Shown: in pieces, positions 29,563 to 36,708 of the stretch | Layout: each line of letters begins with the position of its first letter | How positions within the stretch are numbered: position 1 is the first letter of the stretch | Origin: Candidatus Omnitrophota bacterium | Lineage (GTDB): Bacteria; Omnitrophota; Gorgyraeia; Gygaellales; Profunditerraquicolaceae | Assembly: GCA_026387335.1 (NCBI GenBank) | Contig: JAPLLX010000001.1 | Span: 170,620-234,619, forward strand | Direction of reading: 5' to 3' | Length of the DNA: 64,000 nt | Position numbers and translations under genes: made by a program | Notes under the pieces: generated by a model | What the model was told of the DNA's origin: nothing | The model's input: only the letters and a program-made list of their open reading frames with translations | The model's database searches: none

Positions 29563-31016
29563 ACATTCTGGGCTTATCTTGCTTTTATCATGATAGCGCC
29601 GCCTGTTTAACCCGCGATGGAGAGATTACCGCAGCCGCTCAGGAAGAACGTTTTAGCCGCAAAAAATACGACCCTCGTTTTCCTACCCAGGCAATTAACT
29701 GGTGCCTTAAATATAACAATGTTAGTTCCCGCGCTTTAGACCGTATAGCTTGCTGTGGAAATAACCTAAGTCTAATTTTTAATCCAAAAGTAAAATTCTA
29801 TAGCCCCCGGGATGCATACCTGGCTGCGGCTTATTATCCTTCGCCCTTTAAAGAAGCGCTTATTCTGGTTAATGATGTTGATACTGGAGTTATCTTTGGC
29901 CGGAGCGAGGGAGAGAGAATCAGTTTAGTTAAAAATTCCATTTTTAAGTATCCTTTAGGCAAGGTTTATGCGCGAGTTAGCCGTTATTTAGGGTTTGGCG
30001 GATATGGCGATGAATTTAAAGTAATGGGTTTAGCTGCTTATGGTAAGCCAATATATAAAGAGAGATTGCTTCCCGCTTCGGCTTCGCCCCGCGGTCGCAA
30101 TGACATAACACAATTCCATATGGATGTTGCCGCTTCCTTACAGGTGGTAATGGAAGAAGAGGTTTTAAAGATTACCGAATATTTATCCGGGCTTAAAATG
30201 AGCGGTAACCTTTGTTTATCTGGAAATATGGCTTTAAATTGCCTGATTAACGCTAAGATTATAAAACAGGGTCTATTTAAAAATATCTGGATTCAACCTG
30301 CCAGCGCTAACGCCGGATGCGCTCTTGGCGCGGCCCTATTAGCCTGGTATGAGAAGAATAAGCGTAATGATGGCCCTGGAATGGACAAGATGAGCGGTAG
30401 TTTTCTTGGCCCGGATTATAATGAAGATTATATTGAGAATTTTTTAAGAAACGAAGGTATTCTTTATAAGAAATTGTACCATACGGATATTGCAAAAATT
30501 GCGGCAGGGTTGATTGCTCAAGGTAAGGTAGTCGGGTGGTTCCAGGGAAGGGCGGAATTTGGGCCCCGGGCCTTGGGGAACCGTTCTATTCTTGGGGATA
30601 GCCGCGACTTACGTATGCATAAGAAGCTTAACCTTGAGGTAAAAAGGCGCGAGGCTTTCCGGCCGTTTGCTCCGACTGTATTGTGGGAGAAAGCGGGTGA
30701 TTATTTTGAATTAGACAGAGAGGATCCGTTTATGCTGTTTACCGCTCAGGTAAAAGAGGAGAAGAAGGCTGAAATTCCCGCGGTAGTCCATATTGATGGC
30801 TCAAGCCGCGTCCAGACTATAAAAAAAGAAAACAATCCTTTGTATTATGATTTAGTAAATGAATTCTATCAAATTACGGGTTGCCCTGTTATAATAAATA
30901 CGTCGTTTAATAGCGGGCCTGAACCGATGGTTTTAAGCCCCGAAGACGCTTACCGCTGCTTTAAGTCATCGGCGATTGATTGTTTAGTTTTAGGGCGTTA
31001 CTTAGTAGAGAAATGA
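29559..31016 (+). CDS. carbamoyltransferase (NodU/CmcH family)
   Basis: N-terminal NILGLSCFYHDSAACLTRDGEI. GTG start in a GTGA overlap. Confidence 0.85.
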   Translation: MNILGLSCFYHDSAACLTRDGEITAAAQEERFSRKKYDPRFPTQAINWCLKYNNVSSRALDRIACCGNNLSLIFNPKVKFYSPRDAYLAAAYYPSPFKEALILVNDVDTGVIFGRSEGERISLVKNSIFKYPLGKVYARVSRYLGFGGYGDEFKVMGLAAYGKPIYKERLLPASASPRGRNDITQFHMDVAASLQVVMEEEVLKITEYLSGLKMSGNLCLSGNMALNCLINAKIIKQGLFKNIWIQPASANAGCALGAALLAWYEKNKRNDGPGMDKMSGSFLGPDYNEDYIENFLRNEGILYKKLYHTDIAKIAAGLIAQGKVVGWFQGRAEFGPRALGNRSILGDSRDLRMHKKLNLEVKRREAFRPFAPTVLWEKAGDYFELDREDPFMLFTAQVKEEKKAEIPAVVHIDGSSRVQTIKKENNPLYYDLVNEFYQITGCPVIINTSFNSGPEPMVLSPEDAYRCFKSSAIDCLVLGRYLVEK

Positions 31017-31921
31017 TGAAGAATATTTTAGCTATACGTAATGATAGGTTTGGGGAGTTTTTACTCAATATTCCGGCGTTTAGGGCACTTAAAGAAAGTT
31101 TTCCTGGCTCCTTGCTTACTTTGGCGGTAAGCCCAGCGGTTAAAGAGCTAGCGGAATGCGTAGAATATGCTGACCAAGTAGTTATTTGGGATGATGATTT
31201 TGAGAAAAATTTAAGGAAGCAGAAATTTGATACTTGCGTTGTTTTAAATCCTACAAAAGAAGCGCACTGGATAAGTTTTTGGGCGGGGATCCCTAAGCGG
31301 GTTGGTTATAATAGGAAATGGGGCATTTTATTGACCCATAAAATACAGGATAATAAAAACTTAGGCCTCAAGCATGAAGTTGAGTATAATTTGGATTTAG
31401 TTGGTCTAATTGGCGCAAAAACTAGCGATAAGATAGTTCGCTTAGGTAAGTTGCCGCAATATAATAAACCTGAGTATGTGGGAGCGATTGCCGTGCACCC
31501 TTTTACAAGTGATACGCTTAAGCAATGGCCCATTGATAAGTTTAGGCAATTAATAAAACGCTTATCTGAAGAGGCTGGGGTAAAAGTGTTGGTTGTCGGT
31601 AGGGATGAAGTCATCGGCAGAGAATATTTTGATAACCTAGGTAGTAGTATTATAAACTTGGTTAACAGGACCTCGCTTGTTGAATTGGCCCAGATCCTTA
31701 AACAATGCAAGTTATTGGTAACTTGTGACAGCGGGCCGATGCATTTGGCCGCGGCAGTGGGGATACCAGTGGTGGCGTTATTTCGAAATGATTTAGCGGG
31801 TAAAACGCCTAAGCGCTGGGGGCCTTGGGGCAAGAGGCATGTGGTGATTGAAAAAGGCCAACTTACAGATATAAGCGTTGAAGAAGTACTTGACAAAGCC
31901 AAATATATCAGGTATAGTTAG
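31013..31921 (+). CDS. glycosyltransferase family 9 (heptosyltransferase-like)
   Basis: ILAIRNDRFGEFLLNIPAFRALKESFP is the GT9 N-terminal signature. ATG overlaps the upstream stop. Confidence 0.75.
   Translation: MMKNILAIRNDRFGEFLLNIPAFRALKESFPGSLLTLAVSPAVKELAECVEYADQVVIWDDDFEKNLRKQKFDTCVVLNPTKEAHWISFWAGIPKRVGYNRKWGILLTHKIQDNKNLGLKHEVEYNLDLVGLIGAKTSDKIVRLGKLPQYNKPEYVGAIAVHPFTSDTLKQWPIDKFRQLIKRLSEEAGVKVLVVGRDEVIGREYFDNLGSSIINLVNRTSLVELAQILKQCKLLVTCDSGPMHLAAAVGIPVVALFRNDLAGKTPKRWGPWGKRHVVIEKGQLTDISVEEVLDKAKYIRYS
31890..31918 (+). promoter_or_regulatory. sigma-70-like promoter TTGACA-17-TATAGT for the AbiEi-like gene
   Basis: TTGACA at 31890-31895, a 17-nt spacer, and TATAGT at 31913-31918. 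The -10 lies inside the palindrome. Confidence 0.55.
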
Positions 31922-31947
31922 TTAACAGTTTTGTTAACTAACTATAC
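31912..31947. promoter_or_regulatory. perfect 16-bp inverted repeat (36-bp palindrome) GTATAGTTAGTTAACA-gttt-TGTTAACTAACTATAC; candidate autoregulatory operator or terminator
   Basis: Read directly. It overlaps the -10 and ends 4 nt before the ATG at 31952. Confidence 0.7.
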
Positions 31948-31951
31948 TCAG

Positions 31952-32545
31952 ATGAACTACACAAAAATTAAGTTATTAAATAAGCTTTACTTTAGCTACC
32001 GGGATATTTCAAGGGTGTTTGGCATATCTCCTGGCTCAGGGCGCGTTGCGGCTACAAGGTTGGTAAAAAGCGGCGACATCACCAGAGTTAAGAGGGATTT
32101 TTATATATTAAGCCAGAGATGGAGCTCTTCTTCTCTGGAAGACCGGTTTATTTTAGCTAACCTACTCCAAGTCCCTTCCTATATATCACTTATGACCGCT
32201 TTAAGTTATTATGAGATCACTACTCAGGTGCAGCGAGATTTTATAGAATCTGTGGGTTACTATAGGACTAAGCTGGTTGAAGTTAAGGAAAGTAGTTTCA
32301 ATTACAGTAAAATAAATAGAAAATTATATTTTGGGTTCGCAAAAATTAAGGGATTTTTTATCGCTAGCCCGGAAAAGGCGTTTCTTGACGCGATCTATCT
32401 TAAGTCTTTAAAAAAATATAATTTTGACCTTACGTCTATTGATCCTAGCAAGTTGAATATTAAGCGGATTAAACTAATGTCCGGAAAATATCCGTTATTA
32501 ACCAGGAAACTATTATTAAAATATGGATATCTTAAGAAAACATGA
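31952..32545 (+). CDS. AbiEi-like antitoxin / winged-HTH transcriptional regulator
   Basis: N-terminal wHTH signature ISRVFGISPGSGRVAATRLVKSGDITRVKRDFYIL. It is immediately upstream of the NTase gene. Confidence 0.6.
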   Translation: MNYTKIKLLNKLYFSYRDISRVFGISPGSGRVAATRLVKSGDITRVKRDFYILSQRWSSSSLEDRFILANLLQVPSYISLMTALSYYEITTQVQRDFIESVGYYRTKLVEVKESSFNYSKINRKLYFGFAKIKGFFIASPEKAFLDAIYLKSLKKYNFDLTSIDPSKLNIKRIKLMSGKYPLLTRKLLLKYGYLKKT

Positions 32546-33191
32546 AATATTTGAGATAGAGGTCCTGGAAAAGCTCAAGAATGGAGATTTCTTGAGGCCG
32601 CTTATTTTTATCGGCGGCACAATGCTTAGGCTTTGTTATGAGCTGAGCCGCTATTCCACGGATCTTGATTTCTGGTTTGTTAAAAAAACAGACCAAAAGG
32701 GTTATTTTAATAAACTCAAAAGTTATTTGAGCGGGTTTTATGAAGTTACTGACGCGCAGTTAAAGTTTAATAGCTTGCTTTTAGAGCTACGCAGTAAGAA
32801 TTATCCCAAGCGGCTTAAAATTGAAATCAGGAAAGAGCTTAGGGAGTGTGATATTCAGGAAAGAATCGCCTTTTCAAAATATAGCACTAACCAAGTTGTT
32901 TTAAGGGTGATTGTCCTGGAAGAAGCAATGAAGTATAAGATTATGGCGGCTTTAGATAGAAAAGATATAAGAGATTTTTTTGATTTGGAGTTTTTGCTGC
33001 GGCAAGGTGTTGAGCTTAAGGCCAAAAGCAGTGATTTAGAAGCCTTGAGGGATATTGCAGAGGGTTTTAAAGATAAGGATTATAAGGTCGTTTTAGGCTC
33101 GCTTTTGGAGGCAGATTTGCGTAATTATTACGTGAAGAATAAATTTGAATTCTTAATAGCGAAGATAGATAACTTGGGGAAGAAAATATGA
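32523..33191 (+). CDS. AbiEii/AbiGii-family nucleotidyltransferase (putative type IV TA toxin)
   Basis: FIGGTMLRLCYELSRYSTDLDFWF is the Pol-beta NTase G[GS]...DhD motif of the DUF1814/AbiEii family. Confidence 0.65.
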   Translation: MDILRKHEIFEIEVLEKLKNGDFLRPLIFIGGTMLRLCYELSRYSTDLDFWFVKKTDQKGYFNKLKSYLSGFYEVTDAQLKFNSLLLELRSKNYPKRLKIEIRKELRECDIQERIAFSKYSTNQVVLRVIVLEEAMKYKIMAALDRKDIRDFFDLEFLLRQGVELKAKSSDLEALRDIAEGFKDKDYKVVLGSLLEADLRNYYVKNKFEFLIAKIDNLGKKI

Positions 33192-34582
33192 ATTACGCGG
33201 TGATTTTAGCAGGAGGGGTGGGAAGCAGATTCTGGCCTTTTTCGCGTGAGCTCGAGCCAAAGCAGTTTATGCGCCTGATTGGCGAAGAAAGCCTGCTGCA
33301 GTCCACATTTAAGCGCCTGAAGGGCATAGTTACGCCCAAGAATACCTTTATTATTACAAATGATATCTATTTTTATGAATTATTAAATCAGATAAAGGGC
33401 TATGGGATACCGGAAGGCAATATTATCCTGGAGCCTGAAGGAAAAAATACCGCTCCGGCAATCGGCCTTTGCGCGAAATTAATCTCTAAACTTGATAAAA
33501 ACGCAACTTTAATAGTTTTGCCAGCTGACCATTATATAAAAGGCCTGTTTAATTTTAAGAGAGCTATTAAAAATGCGATTGAAGCGGCGCGCAATGATTT
33601 ATTAGTTACTATTGGGATTAAGCCGAATAAGCCTTCAACAGCGTATGGGTATATAAAAATAAAGTCAAAAGTCAAAAGTCAAAAGTCAAAAGTCTATTCC
33701 GTGGAGAAATTTCTGGAGAAGCCGGGTTTAGATAAAGCGAAAAAATACTTAAAAGATAAAAGTTTCTTCTGGAACAGCGGGATGTTTATCTGGAAGGCGG
33801 ATATATTTTTAGGAGAGGTAAAGAAATATTTGCCGGATTTGTTCAAACGTCTGGATTCCATAAAATCAGTAAATGATATTAAGAAAATCTGGCCGAAGAT
33901 AAAATCAATCTCGGTTGATTATGGGATAATGGAGCATTCTAAGAAGATCGCGCTTATTCCGGCAAACTTTTATTGGACGGATTTGGGAAGTTGGGATGCG
34001 CTGGCGGAAATATTGCCGAAAGATAAGAAGGGGAATATTACTAACAGCGATACTTTGAATGTGGATAGCCAGGGCGTATGCGTATTTTCCAGAGGCAACA
34101 GGTTGGTTTCAACCATCGGTGTTAATAATATGGTTATCGCGGATACCCCAGATGCTTTGTTAGTTTGTGACAGGAATAGGACTCAGGATGTGAAACAGCT
34201 GGTGGAGAGGTTAAAGACGCTTAAGCGTAAAGAGCATCAGGTGCATTTGACTGAACGTAGGCCTTGGGGGTCGTTTACTGTTTTGCAGGAGGGGCCAGGT
34301 TTTAAGATCAAGCTTATTGAGCTTGCGCCAAAAAAACGCCTTAGTCTACAAAGACATAAAAATCGCGCTGAGCATTGGGTAGTAGTTTCCGGTATGGCCA
34401 AGACAACTCGCGCCGGCAAGGTTTCATTTGTGCGCAGTAATGAGAGTGTGTATATACCTAAGGGTAGGAAGCATCGCTTGGAAAATCCTTTGCGTATACC
34501 TTTGAAGATTGTGGAAGTGCAAACAGGCGCGTATTTGGAAGAGGATGATATTGAGAGATTTGAGGATGATTTTAAAAGGTAA
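33188..34582 (+). CDS. manC: mannose-1-phosphate guanylyltransferase / mannose-6-phosphate isomerase (bifunctional ManC)
   Basis: N-terminal NTP-transferase domain (ILAGGVGSRFWPFS) and C-terminal cupin PMI domain. ATGA overlap with the upstream NTase gene. Confidence 0.8.
   Translation: MNYAVILAGGVGSRFWPFSRELEPKQFMRLIGEESLLQSTFKRLKGIVTPKNTFIITNDIYFYELLNQIKGYGIPEGNIILEPEGKNTAPAIGLCAKLISKLDKNATLIVLPADHYIKGLFNFKRAIKNAIEAARNDLLVTIGIKPNKPSTAYGYIKIKSKVKSQKSKVYSVEKFLEKPGLDKAKKYLKDKSFFWNSGMFIWKADIFLGEVKKYLPDLFKRLDSIKSVNDIKKIWPKIKSISVDYGIMEHSKKIALIPANFYWTDLGSWDALAEILPKDKKGNITNSDTLNVDSQGVCVFSRGNRLVSTIGVNNMVIADTPDALLVCDRNRTQDVKQLVERLKTLKRKEHQVHLTERRPWGSFTVLQEGPGFKIKLIELAPKKRLSLQRHKNRAEHWVVVSGMAKTTRAGKVSFVRSNESVYIPKGRKHRLENPLRIPLKIVEVQTGAYLEEDDIERFEDDFKR
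33661..33694 (+). repeat. heptanucleotide tandem repeat (AAAGTCA/AAAAGTC) x about 4.9, inside the manC coding sequence
   Basis: Read directly: aaagtcaaaagtcaaaagtcaaaagtcaaaagtc. It encodes KSKVKSQKSKV. Confidence 0.8.
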
Positions 34583-34595
34583 ACCAGATTATTAG

Positions 34596-34624
34596 TTGAC
34601 ATAAGTTATACAACAATATATATT
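34596..34624 (+). promoter_or_regulatory. sigma-70-like promoter TTGACA-17-TATATT
   Basis: TTGACA at 34596-34601 and TATATT at 34619-34624. It overlaps an inverted repeat. Confidence 0.55.
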
Positions 34625-34646
34625 ACTATATACATTGTTGTATAAC
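34605..34646. promoter_or_regulatory. inverted repeat GTTATACAACAAT ... ATTGTTGTATAAC (13 bp perfect, extendable to 19 bp with 1 mismatch); candidate operator
   Basis: Read directly. It lies between the -35 and the RBS of the small gene. Confidence 0.6.
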
Positions 34647-34659
34647 AGGAGTGTGTTAT

Positions 34660-34980
34660 ATGAGAGGCTTAATTAAGGGTGTGTTGTCAGAAGAATTGGG
34701 TAACTCTCTGCGTATGAAAAAAAGATATGTAGAGGAGCTCGATAAGCTTCCTAAGGGGTGCCTCTCCCGTAAAAAAATTAAAGGACACTATTATTTTTAT
34801 TTAGTTCAAAGACATAAAGGTAAGTTTCTATACAATTATAAGGGTAGGCTTTCGCCCGATGAAGTTAAAAAACATAAGTCTTTACAGCTTAAGCGCGCGG
34901 GTTACCGTAAGTCTTTAAGCAAACTAAATAAACAGATTAAGTTTTTACGGAGTACTTTACGTGGAAAACAGCCAGTATAA
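34660..34980 (+). CDS. small basic protein (possible antitoxin/DNA-binding partner)
   Basis: ATG 34660 lies 8 nt after AGGAG. 106 aa, Lys/Arg-rich. Confidence 0.45.
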   Translation: MRGLIKGVLSEELGNSLRMKKRYVEELDKLPKGCLSRKKIKGHYYFYLVQRHKGKFLYNYKGRLSPDEVKKHKSLQLKRAGYRKSLSKLNKQIKFLRSTLRGKQPV

Positions 34981-35641
34981 ATTATGTACAGAAGTCTTAA
35001 AAAGGCTGGATGGTTCTGGGATATTAAAACACTTAGTTCTTATTGGAAGCTGGTGCGTTCCTTTTTATAAAGAATATTTTTCAGATGTAGAGTATTCTAC
35101 TTCTATAACAACCAGAGATCTCGATTTCTTTGTTCCCCTACCGCTTGTAACAAAAAACAAAATTGATATTGAGAAATTGTTAGATGGACTTGGTTTTGTC
35201 ATTGATTTTAAGGGTTCTGACGGTTACATTAAGTTATACCATCCTGAGCTTATTCTAGAGTTTCTGGTTACGGAAAAAGGCGTGGGTTTAAATAAGCCTT
35301 ATAAATTGGATCAACTTGGGATTAATGCCCAGCCTTTACGGTTTCTTAATTTACTTACAGCGAAACTTATAAATGTTATGGTTGAAGGAATTAGAATTAA
35401 TTTGCCTCATCCCGCCCTTTTTGCTTTACACAAGTTGATTGTATCAGATAGAAGGATAAAAAAGGACAAAAAAGTCAAAGATTTAGATACGGCAATTAGA
35501 ATAATAAGGGCATTGCTTGATAAAGGCGAAGCTAATAAATTGAAATTTTTCTTTATGGGTTTTACTCCTAAGTTGCGTAACAGAATTACGGCTGTATTGA
35601 AAGATGACGGCCAATTAGATTTAGTGGATGTGCTTATATGA
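34961..35641 (+). CDS. nucleotidyltransferase-fold protein (second NTase, TA-toxin-like)
   Basis: LIGSWCVPFY ... TTRDLDFFVP carries the NTase G-S ... D-x-D motif. Confidence 0.5.
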   Translation: MENSQYKLCTEVLKRLDGSGILKHLVLIGSWCVPFYKEYFSDVEYSTSITTRDLDFFVPLPLVTKNKIDIEKLLDGLGFVIDFKGSDGYIKLYHPELILEFLVTEKGVGLNKPYKLDQLGINAQPLRFLNLLTAKLINVMVEGIRINLPHPALFALHKLIVSDRRIKKDKKVKDLDTAIRIIRALLDKGEANKLKFFFMGFTPKLRNRITAVLKDDGQLDLVDVLI

Positions 35642-36708
35642 TAAAATTGTTAATTATTAACCCTTTTGGCATCGGAGATGTTTTATTCACCACGCCGGTA
35701 ATCAAGGCGATAAAGGAAAAATACGGGAATAGTTTTATCGGTTACTGGTGTAATCGCAGAGTGCGGCCATTATTGGAAGCAAACCCTGGAATCAACAAGC
35801 TTTTTGATTTAAACCGGGGGGATCTTAAAAAAATATACCAAGAATCATTTTTTAGCGGGCTTGGGGAAACTTTAAAGCTCGGATGGGAGATTAAAAAAGG
35901 TAACTTTGACATTTGTTTTGACTTTTCGCTGGACTACCGCTATAGTTTATTTGCAAAAATAATCGGCATACGCAAAAGAATAGGTTTTAATTATAAGGGC
36001 CGGGGCAGGTTTCTTACGGATAGAGTTGATTTAGATGGTTATAGCGCTAAGCATGTTGTGGAGTATTATCTGGGGTTGCTTAGCTTTCTGGGTATAGAAA
36101 CAGAAGATAAATCTTTGGATTTGATTGTTTCTTCTGTTGCTCAAACAAAGGCTCAGAATATACTTAGCTCAAAAGGGATTGAAAGAGGCGACTTGTTGGT
36201 TGGTATTGCTCCCGGAGCCGGCGGGAGTTGGGGTAAGGACGCAAGTTACAAGCATTGGCCGCCATTAAAGTTCGCCCAGGTAGCGGATAAACTTATGGAT
36301 AAATTTAAAGTAAAAGTAGTAATTCTGGGAGATGAAACCGAACAGCCAATTTCGGATGTAATTATTAATTCTATGCGCCAAAAACCCATAGATTTGACCG
36401 GAAAGATTAAGCTGGAGGTACTCCCGGCAATAATCAAAAGTTTAAACCTTTTGCTATCCAATGACGGCGGACCGATGCATATGGCCGTTGCTTTAGGTAT
36501 AAAAACTGTTTCGGTATTCGGGCCGGTGAGCGAGCGGGTTTACGGGCCGTATCCGGATAGCCGCAACCACGTAGTTTTAAAATGGGATATGGAGTGCCGG
36601 CCATGCTATAAGAATTTTAGGCTACCCGTTTGCGATAAAGATAAGGAATGCTTGAGGCAGGTGAGCGCTGATGCGGTGTTTGATGCAGCGGAAAGGTTGT
36701 TAAGTTAA
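35638..36708 (+). CDS. glycosyltransferase family 9 (heptosyltransferase-like), second copy
   Basis: IINPFGIGDVLFTTPVIKAIKE is the GT9 signature. Confidence 0.75.
   Translation: MIKLLIINPFGIGDVLFTTPVIKAIKEKYGNSFIGYWCNRRVRPLLEANPGINKLFDLNRGDLKKIYQESFFSGLGETLKLGWEIKKGNFDICFDFSLDYRYSLFAKIIGIRKRIGFNYKGRGRFLTDRVDLDGYSAKHVVEYYLGLLSFLGIETEDKSLDLIVSSVAQTKAQNILSSKGIERGDLLVGIAPGAGGSWGKDASYKHWPPLKFAQVADKLMDKFKVKVVILGDETEQPISDVIINSMRQKPIDLTGKIKLEVLPAIIKSLNLLLSNDGGPMHMAVALGIKTVSVFGPVSERVYGPYPDSRNHVVLKWDMECRPCYKNFRLPVCDKDKECLRQVSADAVFDAAERLLS

Follow-up and report, generated by a model that had tools for sequence, protein, structure and literature searches.

A candidate autoregulated nucleotidyltransferase toxin-antitoxin module of split DUF6788/NTP_transf_8 type in an Omnitrophota glycan operon

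Within a 64,000-nucleotide (nt) stretch of DNA from a Candidatus Omnitrophota bacterium, hereafter the window, positions 34596-35641 hold a compact cassette embedded in a glycan operon. The interval comprises a sigma-70-type promoter with a perfect inverted repeat, a first open reading frame (ORF1) for a small basic protein, a second one (ORF2) for a predicted nucleotidyltransferase (NTase) that begins inside ORF1, and the start of a glycosyltransferase family 9 (GT9) gene that overlaps the end of ORF2. A preliminary description, made from the letters of the sequence, had listed the promoter, the palindrome, the two overlapping ORFs and the 4-nt overlap with the GT9 gene, and all of them are present in the window sequence (Table 1). 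Its proposal that they form a second two-gene NTase module with a palindrome overlapping the promoter describes a real arrangement, which is conserved in homologous loci. We hold, with moderate confidence, that the region is an autoregulated NTase toxin-antitoxin (TA) module of the AbiE/MenAT kind, mobile, in a split-gene form and with a regulator that is not a helix-turn-helix (HTH) protein.

The -35 and -10 boxes of the ORF1 promoter are separated by 17 nt, and between 29 and 40 kb only this promoter and that of a neighbouring AbiE gene pair reach 11 of 12 matches to the sigma-70 consensus. Promoter-like sites as a whole are not enriched in that interval (22 found against 27 expected), so that a consensus match alone would mean little. 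The palindrome is made of two perfect 13-nt arms separated by a 16-nt spacer and can be extended to 19 nt at 95%; compared with the preliminary description, the right arm came out one base off. Perfect matches to the GTTATACAACAAT motif are found in the 64 kb only at the two arms of the cassette promoter, which points to a regulator dedicated to its own cassette. A wider ORF1 regulon within the window was considered and rejected, the other matches to the motif carrying two mismatches and being no more frequent than expected by chance. The palindrome was likewise rejected as a hairpin of the transcript because its left arm precedes the predicted start of transcription, and a scan of 31.5-36 kb against Rfam detected no RNA family. 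The start of ORF1 was placed, according to its homologues, at an ATG 3 codons downstream of the GTG at which a mechanical ORF list begins it, with the AGGAG motif 8 nt upstream.

Table 1. Features of the cassette and of its immediate surroundings, in window coordinates
Feature	Coordinates	Strand	Remark
-35 box TTGACA	34596..34601	+	11/12 sigma-70 match
Left half-site of the candidate operator, GTTATACAACAAT, in the -35/-10 interval	34605..34617	+	Perfect inverted repeat; variant of the family half-site
-10 box TATATT, within the operator spacer	34619..34624	+	TATAnT kept in the same column of the aligned promoters
Right half-site of the candidate operator (ATTGTTGTATAAC on the + strand), about +3 to +15 of the predicted transcript	34634..34646	-
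Ribosome binding site AGGAG for ORF1	34647..34651	+	Purine-rich motif at the equivalent position in homologues
ORF1, 106 amino acids, probable DUF6788 protein, presumed autorepressor and antitoxin-like partner	34660..34980	+
Internal Shine-Dalgarno sequence GGAG for ORF2, within ORF1	34949..34952	+
ORF1/ORF2 overlap of 20 nt, ORF2 GTG start	34961..34980	+
ORF2, 226 amino acids, NTP_transf_8 NTase of Pol-beta fold, presumed effector/toxin	34961..35641	+
ATGA overlap, ORF2 stop/GT9 start	35638..35641	+	No terminator-like site between
GT9 gene (heptosyltransferase-like), 4-nt overlap with ORF2	35638..36708	+
Neighbouring AbiEi/AbiEii module (context only, outside the cassette)	31890..33191	+	PADLOC, promoter, inverted repeat

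One genome of each GTDB species was scanned by pattern and by tblastn for relatives of ORF2; of the 249 found, the best 80 were examined. These loci come from metagenome-assembled genomes (MAGs) labelled Omnitrophota, Planctomycetota, Elusimicrobiota, Nitrospirota, Clostridia, delta-proteobacteria, Sumerlaeota, Saganbacteria and others. An ORF1 homologue lies directly upstream of the NTase gene, on the same strand, in 79 of the 79 testable loci, the eightieth being cut by a contig end; the co-occurrence that the preliminary description had put forward as a check is thus complete in this set. The same gene pair is present in Velamenicoccus and delta-proteobacterial genomes. Statistics on promoters and on the junction between the two genes were drawn from 75 unique loci. 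The NTase gene starts with GTG in 67 of them; 64 have an overlap of exactly 20 nt, and 66 have an AGGAG-like Shine-Dalgarno (SD) sequence 8-10 nt upstream of the NTase start. Judged from its sequence, this junction is one of translational coupling with a weak GTG start, by which less enzyme than partner would be made.

An inverted repeat with a common half-site precedes virtually every locus. The best inverted-repeat scores in the upstream regions of 88 homologous loci averaged 12.2, compared with 6.2 for shuffled sequences, and a half-site of the form GTTACC(A/C)(T/A)ACAA is conserved across the 75 unique loci; because repeat and half-site are both conserved, the palindrome is not a product of chance. 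Most loci carry the half-site GTTACCATACAA, which falls into the classes CCTA, CCCA, CCAA and ACCA, the window having the variant TACA. Anchored alignment of the 75 unique promoters gave the arrangement TTGACA-N3-GTTACCATACAA-(taTATAnTAT)-N-TTGTATGGTAAC, in which the -10 box occupies the spacer and the starts of the two half-sites are, for nearly all homologous loci, exactly 30 nt apart. In the window as in the homologous loci, TTGAC begins 10 nt ahead of the TTA in the left half-site, and TTGACA stands 3-4 nt upstream of the arm. A second, identical repeat pair about 58 nt further upstream brings the number of half-sites to four in most loci; the window and its closest relatives have the promoter-proximal pair only.

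If a cassette travels between phyla and takes its operator along, the regulator has to be encoded within it, which leaves only ORF1 and ORF2 to choose from. We infer that ORF1 rather than ORF2 would bind the operator, because of four properties. The protein is very basic, with 28% lysine plus arginine and an isoelectric point of 10.5. Covariation with the operator class is stronger for ORF1 columns than for all NTase columns except one, a signal that is confounded by phylogeny; the top ORF1 columns (58, 37, 36 and 34) fall in beta-strands. At L008/9, where the NTase gene has decayed and ORF1 is an orphan, all four half-sites are kept. Finally, a distant stand-alone DUF6788 gene (L098:250-720) is preceded by two TGCCTAACA...TGTTAGGCA inverted repeats. 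Downstream of this last gene there is no NTP_transf_8 gene, and an RHS-like C-terminal fragment lies 193 nt downstream instead.

The close homologues of ORF1 (n = 88) are nearly all 105-106 amino acids long and share 25 invariant residues. Many of them have a precomputed match to PF20586 (DUF6788), partly a weak one, and a local hmmscan of ORF1 and five homologues returned no PF20586 match even at E<=10. When the ORF1 family was aligned by hhalign with the PF20586-bearing N-terminus of fused proteins (a 13-sequence profile of the N-terminal 104 residues), the match reached E 2.4e-5 and a probability of 75%, against a probability of 1% for a direct comparison of ORF1 with a fused protein that used a single sequence. 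By these profile comparisons ORF1 is probably a DUF6788 protein, the homology being convincing only through the 13-sequence profile and the precomputed Pfam matches. A profile search of 1.84 billion representatives recovered 812 clusters, almost all of them stand-alone proteins of about 100 amino acids. The AF2 model of ORF1 (predicted local distance difference test score, pLDDT, 92) consists of two long helices with a three-stranded beta-meander between them, with no HTH and no evident ligand-sensing domain. Comparison of the model with the PDB and with viral structure libraries gave no significant match, the best being prefoldin beta at E 0.12, and a sequence search of solved structures with ORF1 gave noise only. 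That the small partner is not a recognisable AbiEi, as had been remarked at the outset, agrees with the absence of any AbiEi match (COG5340; PF13338 and others) in Pfam, NCBIfam or PADLOC.

ORF2 matches PF12281, NTP_transf_8, over residues 10-187 with an E value of 4e-21 and 76.4 bits, the cut-off being 26.3, and an identical protein of a Candidatus Omnitrophica MAG bears the NCBI name 'GSU2403 family nucleotidyltransferase fold protein'. The profile search that had been suggested for the NTase thus assigns it to NTP_transf_8/GSU2403 and not to AbiEii. It contains the motifs IGS...TRDLDF. In 27 diverse homologues the residues G29, S30, D53, D55, H157, K158 and D174 are invariant, so that both aspartates whose conservation had been in question are retained; R52, E100, R165 and K173 are near-invariant in the 27 homologues. 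Together these residues spell a Pol-beta signature, with G[GS]...DxD plus a third carboxylate, a K...R pair 7 apart and a KD dipeptide (173-174). Motifs I-II read IG29S30 and T51-R52-D53-x-D55, with 22 residues between the G-S and the D, and H157-K158-L-I...R165 fits motif III of AbiEii with a K-to-R distance of 7. The motifs I-IV of AbiEii/DUF1814, including its K173/R180 pair, were defined in PMC3985639; there motifs I-II take the form hG[G/S]x(about 15)DhD with an arginine in motif II, motif III has a lysine set in a hydrophobic stretch (KLxAaxxR-like), and motif IV is +DxxD.

At the level of profiles ORF2 stands apart from AbiEii, with no Pfam AbiEii match at E<=0.1 and no PADLOC AbiEii match at E<=1. 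An hhalign comparison of ORF2 with the AbiEii of the window itself gave a probability of 1.7%. The statement that the two NTase pairs of the window are unrelated was nonetheless too strong, both enzymes having the Pol-beta fold and sharing motifs I-III. The AF2 model of ORF2 has a pLDDT of 91.5. With Foldseek its matches included ANT(2'')-Ia (E 1.7e-4, template modelling (TM) score up to 0.62 on the target), a fungal NTase-like protein, TM1012 and LnuA, as well as MenT1 (E 5.7e-4, TM 0.41-0.49) and MenT3 (E 0.016). Sequence searches of solved structures returned none for ORF2, and its profile led to designed repeat proteins.

The split pair has a far more frequent fused counterpart. A database search with one fused protein recovered at least 2,992 proteins, and on nearly all of the 120 matches listed, on which the architecture was read, PF20586 and PF12281 occur together. 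The fused proteins measure about 340 amino acids, carry PF12281 at residues ~105-312 (seen in L092-L097 and P0358-P0477) and share about 25-32% identity with ORF2. On the strength of this search and of the N-terminal profile alignment, the common form of the family is a single DUF6788-NTase polypeptide, and the window carries a stable two-gene split form, found in 79 loci, as far as these comparisons can be read. In Alphaproteobacteria the fused genes are preceded by two inverted repeats with the half-sites TTACCCCACAA and TACCCTAC; their consensus, TTACC(C/A)(C/A)ACAA, resembles that of the split family, and the spacing is shorter, with loops of 6-12 nt. With similar repeats ahead of these fused genes and of the stand-alone gene at L098, the operator goes with DUF6788. 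Fused genes occur in variable contexts, also beside plasmid trb/rep genes. A tblastn search against PLSDB matched distant members of the GSU2403 family in 285 plasmid records. Most of the matches are from Rhizobium, Sinorhizobium, Paracoccus and roseobacters, and 125 of the records are conjugative plasmids. Two fused genes on alphaproteobacterial plasmids, L092 (NZ_CP045347.1 45460-46482) and L094 (NZ_CP017782.1), lie between trb and repA or beside ssb and an IS21 element.

Other fusions occur as well. On a 1.5-kb contig (P0294, JGI 3300075153) a DUF6788-like N-terminus is joined to an NTP_transf_2 NTase of the MNT type, followed with a 4-nt overlap by a small gene that may be a HEPN partner; this fusion suggests that DUF6788 serves NTase-type TA systems as a portable regulator module. 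In P0291 and P0332, DUF6788-like N-termini are joined to XylR-like regulators (Peripla_BP_3 plus AraC HTH), possibly through artefacts of gene calling.

Several traits indicate that the cassette moves. Its flanking genes are unrelated from locus to locus, and for 26 of the 58 labelled NTases the nearest relative carries another phylum label, with the reservation that MAG labels may be imperfect. One MAG harbours two copies (L021 and L090). The GC content is 33.9% in the cassette and 35.9% in the AbiE module, compared with 41-42% in the flanking ManC and GT9 genes and 39.8% in the whole window, and the low values of the modules are consistent with horizontal acquisition. The preliminary description had offered a defence or addiction islet as one of its readings, and this reading fits the mobility, the low GC content, the NTase genes that have decayed at some loci and the genuine AbiE pair next to the cassette. 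Complete cassettes were also found in two MAGs labelled 'uncultured archaeon' (L040 and L086), where the nearest NTase relatives are bacterial (Nitrospirota); the archaeal label may reflect either transfer or mis-binning.

Like AbiE, the cassette is bicistronic, its two genes overlap with that of the regulator in front, and its effector is a Pol-beta NTase, which has motifs I/II (G[GS]...RxxxDxD-like) and a motif III with K and R 7 apart. Both systems have inverted repeats in the promoter, autoregulatory in AbiE, and both are mobile and plasmid-borne. AbiE was recently reclassified as type VII (PMC3985639; bioRxiv 10.64898/2026.01.19.700257), and autoregulation through one or two pairs of promoter inverted repeats (four repeats) was described for AbiEi and Rv2827c (PMC7319586). 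In contrast, the NTase of the cassette belongs to PF12281 and not to PF08843/DUF1814, with no profile match between them, its G-S to D spacing is 22 where AbiEii has 15, and it retains only the KD of motif IV. Its partner is a 106-residue helix/beta-meander/helix protein without the winged HTH or the C-terminal domain of AbiEi. Furthermore, the half-sites of the cassette lie 30 nt apart and bracket the -10 box, whereas the 23-bp repeats of AbiE are 3 bp apart, and a fused single-protein form dominates the cassette family.

MenAT1 of M. tuberculosis (Rv0078B/Rv0078A; PMC11375011; PDB 8AN5) provides another point of comparison, as a small non-AbiEi antitoxin paired with a minimal NTase toxin. 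The motif-I hydroxyls T39 of MenT1 and S78 of MenT3 correspond to the invariant S30 of ORF2, and MenA1 acts through one extended helix while the N-terminal helix of ORF1 is highly conserved. MenT and AbiEii toxins can be neutralised by structurally unrelated antitoxins that induce auto-phosphorylation of the motif-I Ser/Thr (PMC11375011; bioRxiv 10.64898/2026.01.19.700257). The two systems differ in that they share no homology at the sequence level, ORF1 exceeds the antitoxin MenA1 in size and has in addition a beta-sheet module and a conserved operator, and the toxin role of ORF2 is presumptive. The fused GSU2403 proteins of Alphaproteobacteria and plasmids have homologous domains, related half-sites and variable contexts, but consist of one polypeptide and are likewise uncharacterised. 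HEPN-MNT (HepT/MntA, type VII) is also a two-gene module with a minimal NTase, and one distant DUF6788-like domain is fused to NTP_transf_2 (MNT); there, however, the NTase is the antitoxin and the HEPN RNase the toxin, whereas the cassette has no HEPN gene and ORF2 is not PF01909. All in all, the kind of system, an NTase effector with an autoregulating partner, is known, but not with this NTase family, this fold of the partner, this operator code or the split/fused duality.

A working model can be drawn from these comparisons. The strong sigma-70 promoter would drive ORF1, and the coupled internal SD sequence and GTG start would give a smaller amount of ORF2. Dimers or oligomers of ORF1 would occupy the half-sites that bracket the -10 box and shut off their own promoter. 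ORF2 would be an active minimal Pol-beta NTase and a growth-inhibiting toxin that nucleotidylates an essential RNA, for example at tRNA 3' ends, and ORF1 would bind it directly and keep it inactive, possibly via an induced auto-phosphorylation of Ser30. Once ORF1 is lost or titrated, ORF2 would be free to nucleotidylate its RNA target. Toxicity, neutralisation and target of ORF2 are conjectural parts of this model.

More tentatively, and with less confidence than the TA assignment itself, we propose that DUF6788 is a new sequence-specific DNA-binding fold that reads the TTACCNNACAA half-site from Alphaproteobacteria to Omnitrophota and that also switches off, in trans or in cis, a MenT/AbiEii-like toxin, in what would be a new and widespread family of NTase TA or abortive-infection systems. 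NTase toxins such as AbiE and MenAT are among the commonest modules linked to phage defence and persistence, and their control by unrelated antitoxins is under active study; if the proposal is true, a third NTase lineage and a non-HTH regulator would be added to them, with thousands of genes that current defence and TA catalogues miss. The operator code is unusually clear for one that spans phyla, and the natural split and fused versions permit a comparison of inhibition in cis and in trans. The family is abundant on rhizobial and roseobacter plasmids and absent from PADLOC, and one characterised member would annotate thousands of 'nucleotidyltransferase fold' proteins.

A number of observations weigh against the TA assignment. 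In the literature searched we found no paper that gives a function for PF12281/NTP_transf_8, DUF6788/PF20586 or the GSU2403 family, the one mention met being irrelevant. Neither protein, split or fused and homologues included, has a match in NCBIfam, PADLOC (PADLOC-DB v2 models, threshold E<=1) or PHROGs, and the viral contigs and phage records searched contained no copy of the cassette. No solved DNA-binding protein matches the fold of ORF1 significantly, and the covariation between ORF1 and the operator is subject to the phylogenetic confounding mentioned above. In ORF2, motif IV is half conserved, K173-D174 being kept and the second Asp of +DxxD not, and the antibiotic NTases ANT(2'')-Ia and LnuA are among its best structural matches. 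Dominance of the fused form is unusual for a TA system and fits cooperating enzyme domains equally well. The NTase gene is frameshifted or deleted beside an intact small gene at L008/L009, L027, L042 and L074, with no locus in the opposite state, yet among the GTDB loci this asymmetry, 3/79 against 0/79, is not statistically significant.

Some of these observations are shared by an explanation that we regard as rather unlikely, although it is the most serious competitor, namely that the pair is a two-subunit enzyme arisen by fission of a two-domain protein, with DUF6788 as the nucleic-acid-binding or targeting part that the NTase requires and that also regulates its own gene, in a regulatory or housekeeping-like role. 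The fused DUF6788+NTP_transf_8 form is by far the commonest, reaches the 285 plasmid records and has domains homologous to the split pair; tight coupling and complete co-occurrence are what obligate subunits should display, and the lack of any match in defence and TA databases agrees with such a role. An obligate partnership is, however, hard to square with NTase genes that decay while the small gene stays intact and with stand-alone DUF6788 genes that keep their operators. Moreover, a small partner followed by an enzyme whose GTG start initiates weakly has the layout of an antitoxin over its toxin, and a patchy, mobile, low-GC, plasmid-borne and multi-copy distribution is atypical for housekeeping. 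As for the fused form, toxins that are fused and inhibited in cis do exist, CapRel being an example. The resemblance to ANT(2'')-Ia and LnuA raises the question of an ANT/Lnu-like NTase that modifies antibiotics or other small molecules under a dedicated repressor. We judge this very improbable: identity to those structures is only 12-14% with no match to an ANT or Lnu sequence family, the K...R and KD motifs near the C-terminus are like those of DUF1814 toxins and unlike ANT enzymes, and the absence of an evident ligand-sensing domain from ORF1 does not suit a repressor of that kind. In addition, the hosts are uncultured environmental lineages in which the cassette behaves as a selfish element.

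Programmed ribosomal frameshifting that would join ORF1 and ORF2 into one fused protein has in its favour the existence of fused homologues and the high conservation of the 20-nt overlap sequence, cGTGGAAAAGAAnCAnTAT. But ORF2 lies in the +1 frame with no known +1 shift site present, and the conserved GTG with its AGGAG-like SD sequence, together with two overlapping coding constraints, explains the conservation. Since gene callers and homologues also agree in beginning ORF2 at M/V-E-K-x-Q-Y, there is little to commend such a shift. Least probable of all is a role in the glycan pathway, with ORF2 nucleotidylylating a sugar or lipid intermediate and ORF1 as pathway regulator, the other reading that the preliminary description had offered. 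It draws on the position of the module, flanked by ManC and a GT9 gene in an operon that runs on one strand, and on the 4-nt GT9 overlap; three close relatives (L012-L014) keep this position. Against it, the glycan genes of the window are shared by only 4 of the 80 loci, the other contexts being unrelated, and in a related Omnitrophota genome (L027) the cassette lies instead at the GT9a|ManC junction, its NTase gene frameshifted and the operon intact. The operator motif is perfect in the window only at the cassette promoter, and ORF2 has a minimal Pol-beta fold and not the sugar-1-phosphate NTP_transferase fold of ManC (33188-34582), the only gene of the locus with a PF00483 match. The comparative context thus largely refutes the glycan-pathway reading, as far as gene neighbourhoods can decide it.

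Gene orders around the cassette place both NTase modules as additions to the operon. The window reads GT9a-[AbiEi/AbiEii]-ManC-[ORF1/ORF2]-GT9b-DegT-GT2 (30980-36708). A related Omnitrophota locus (L014, 266-4758) has GT9a-ManC-[ORF1/ORF2]-GT9b without AbiE, and L027 (1550-6170) has GT9a-[ORF1/ORF2]-ManC-GT9b. Because the junctions differ between related genomes, the two NTase pairs are, to judge from gene order, independent insertions at junctions of a conserved operon and no components of its pathway. Recognising both pairs as mobile insertions in an operon of the lipopolysaccharide type prevents their mis-annotation as glycan-pathway genes. With TA-like insertions at differing junctions from genome to genome, and AbiE in the window alone, the GT9a-ManC-GT9b-DegT-GT2 operon of Omnitrophota looks like an insertion hot-spot.

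The neighbouring pair, 1.4 kb upstream, is a genuine AbiE system, with AbiEi at 31931-32545 (PADLOC 6e-26) and AbiEii at 32523-33191 (PADLOC 4e-91). At their ends both NTase genes share an ATGA with the biosynthetic gene that follows, at 33188-33191 with ManC and at 35638-35641 with GT9, with no terminator-like site between, and the module promoters may by this layout read through into the downstream glycan genes. The AbiE promoter, TTGACA-17-TATAGT, lies at 31890-31918, inside the GT9 gene before it, at that gene's 3' end. The annotated TTG start of AbiEi is overlapped by a perfect 16-nt inverted repeat (31912-31927/31932-31947), and its true start is probably the ATG at about 31952.

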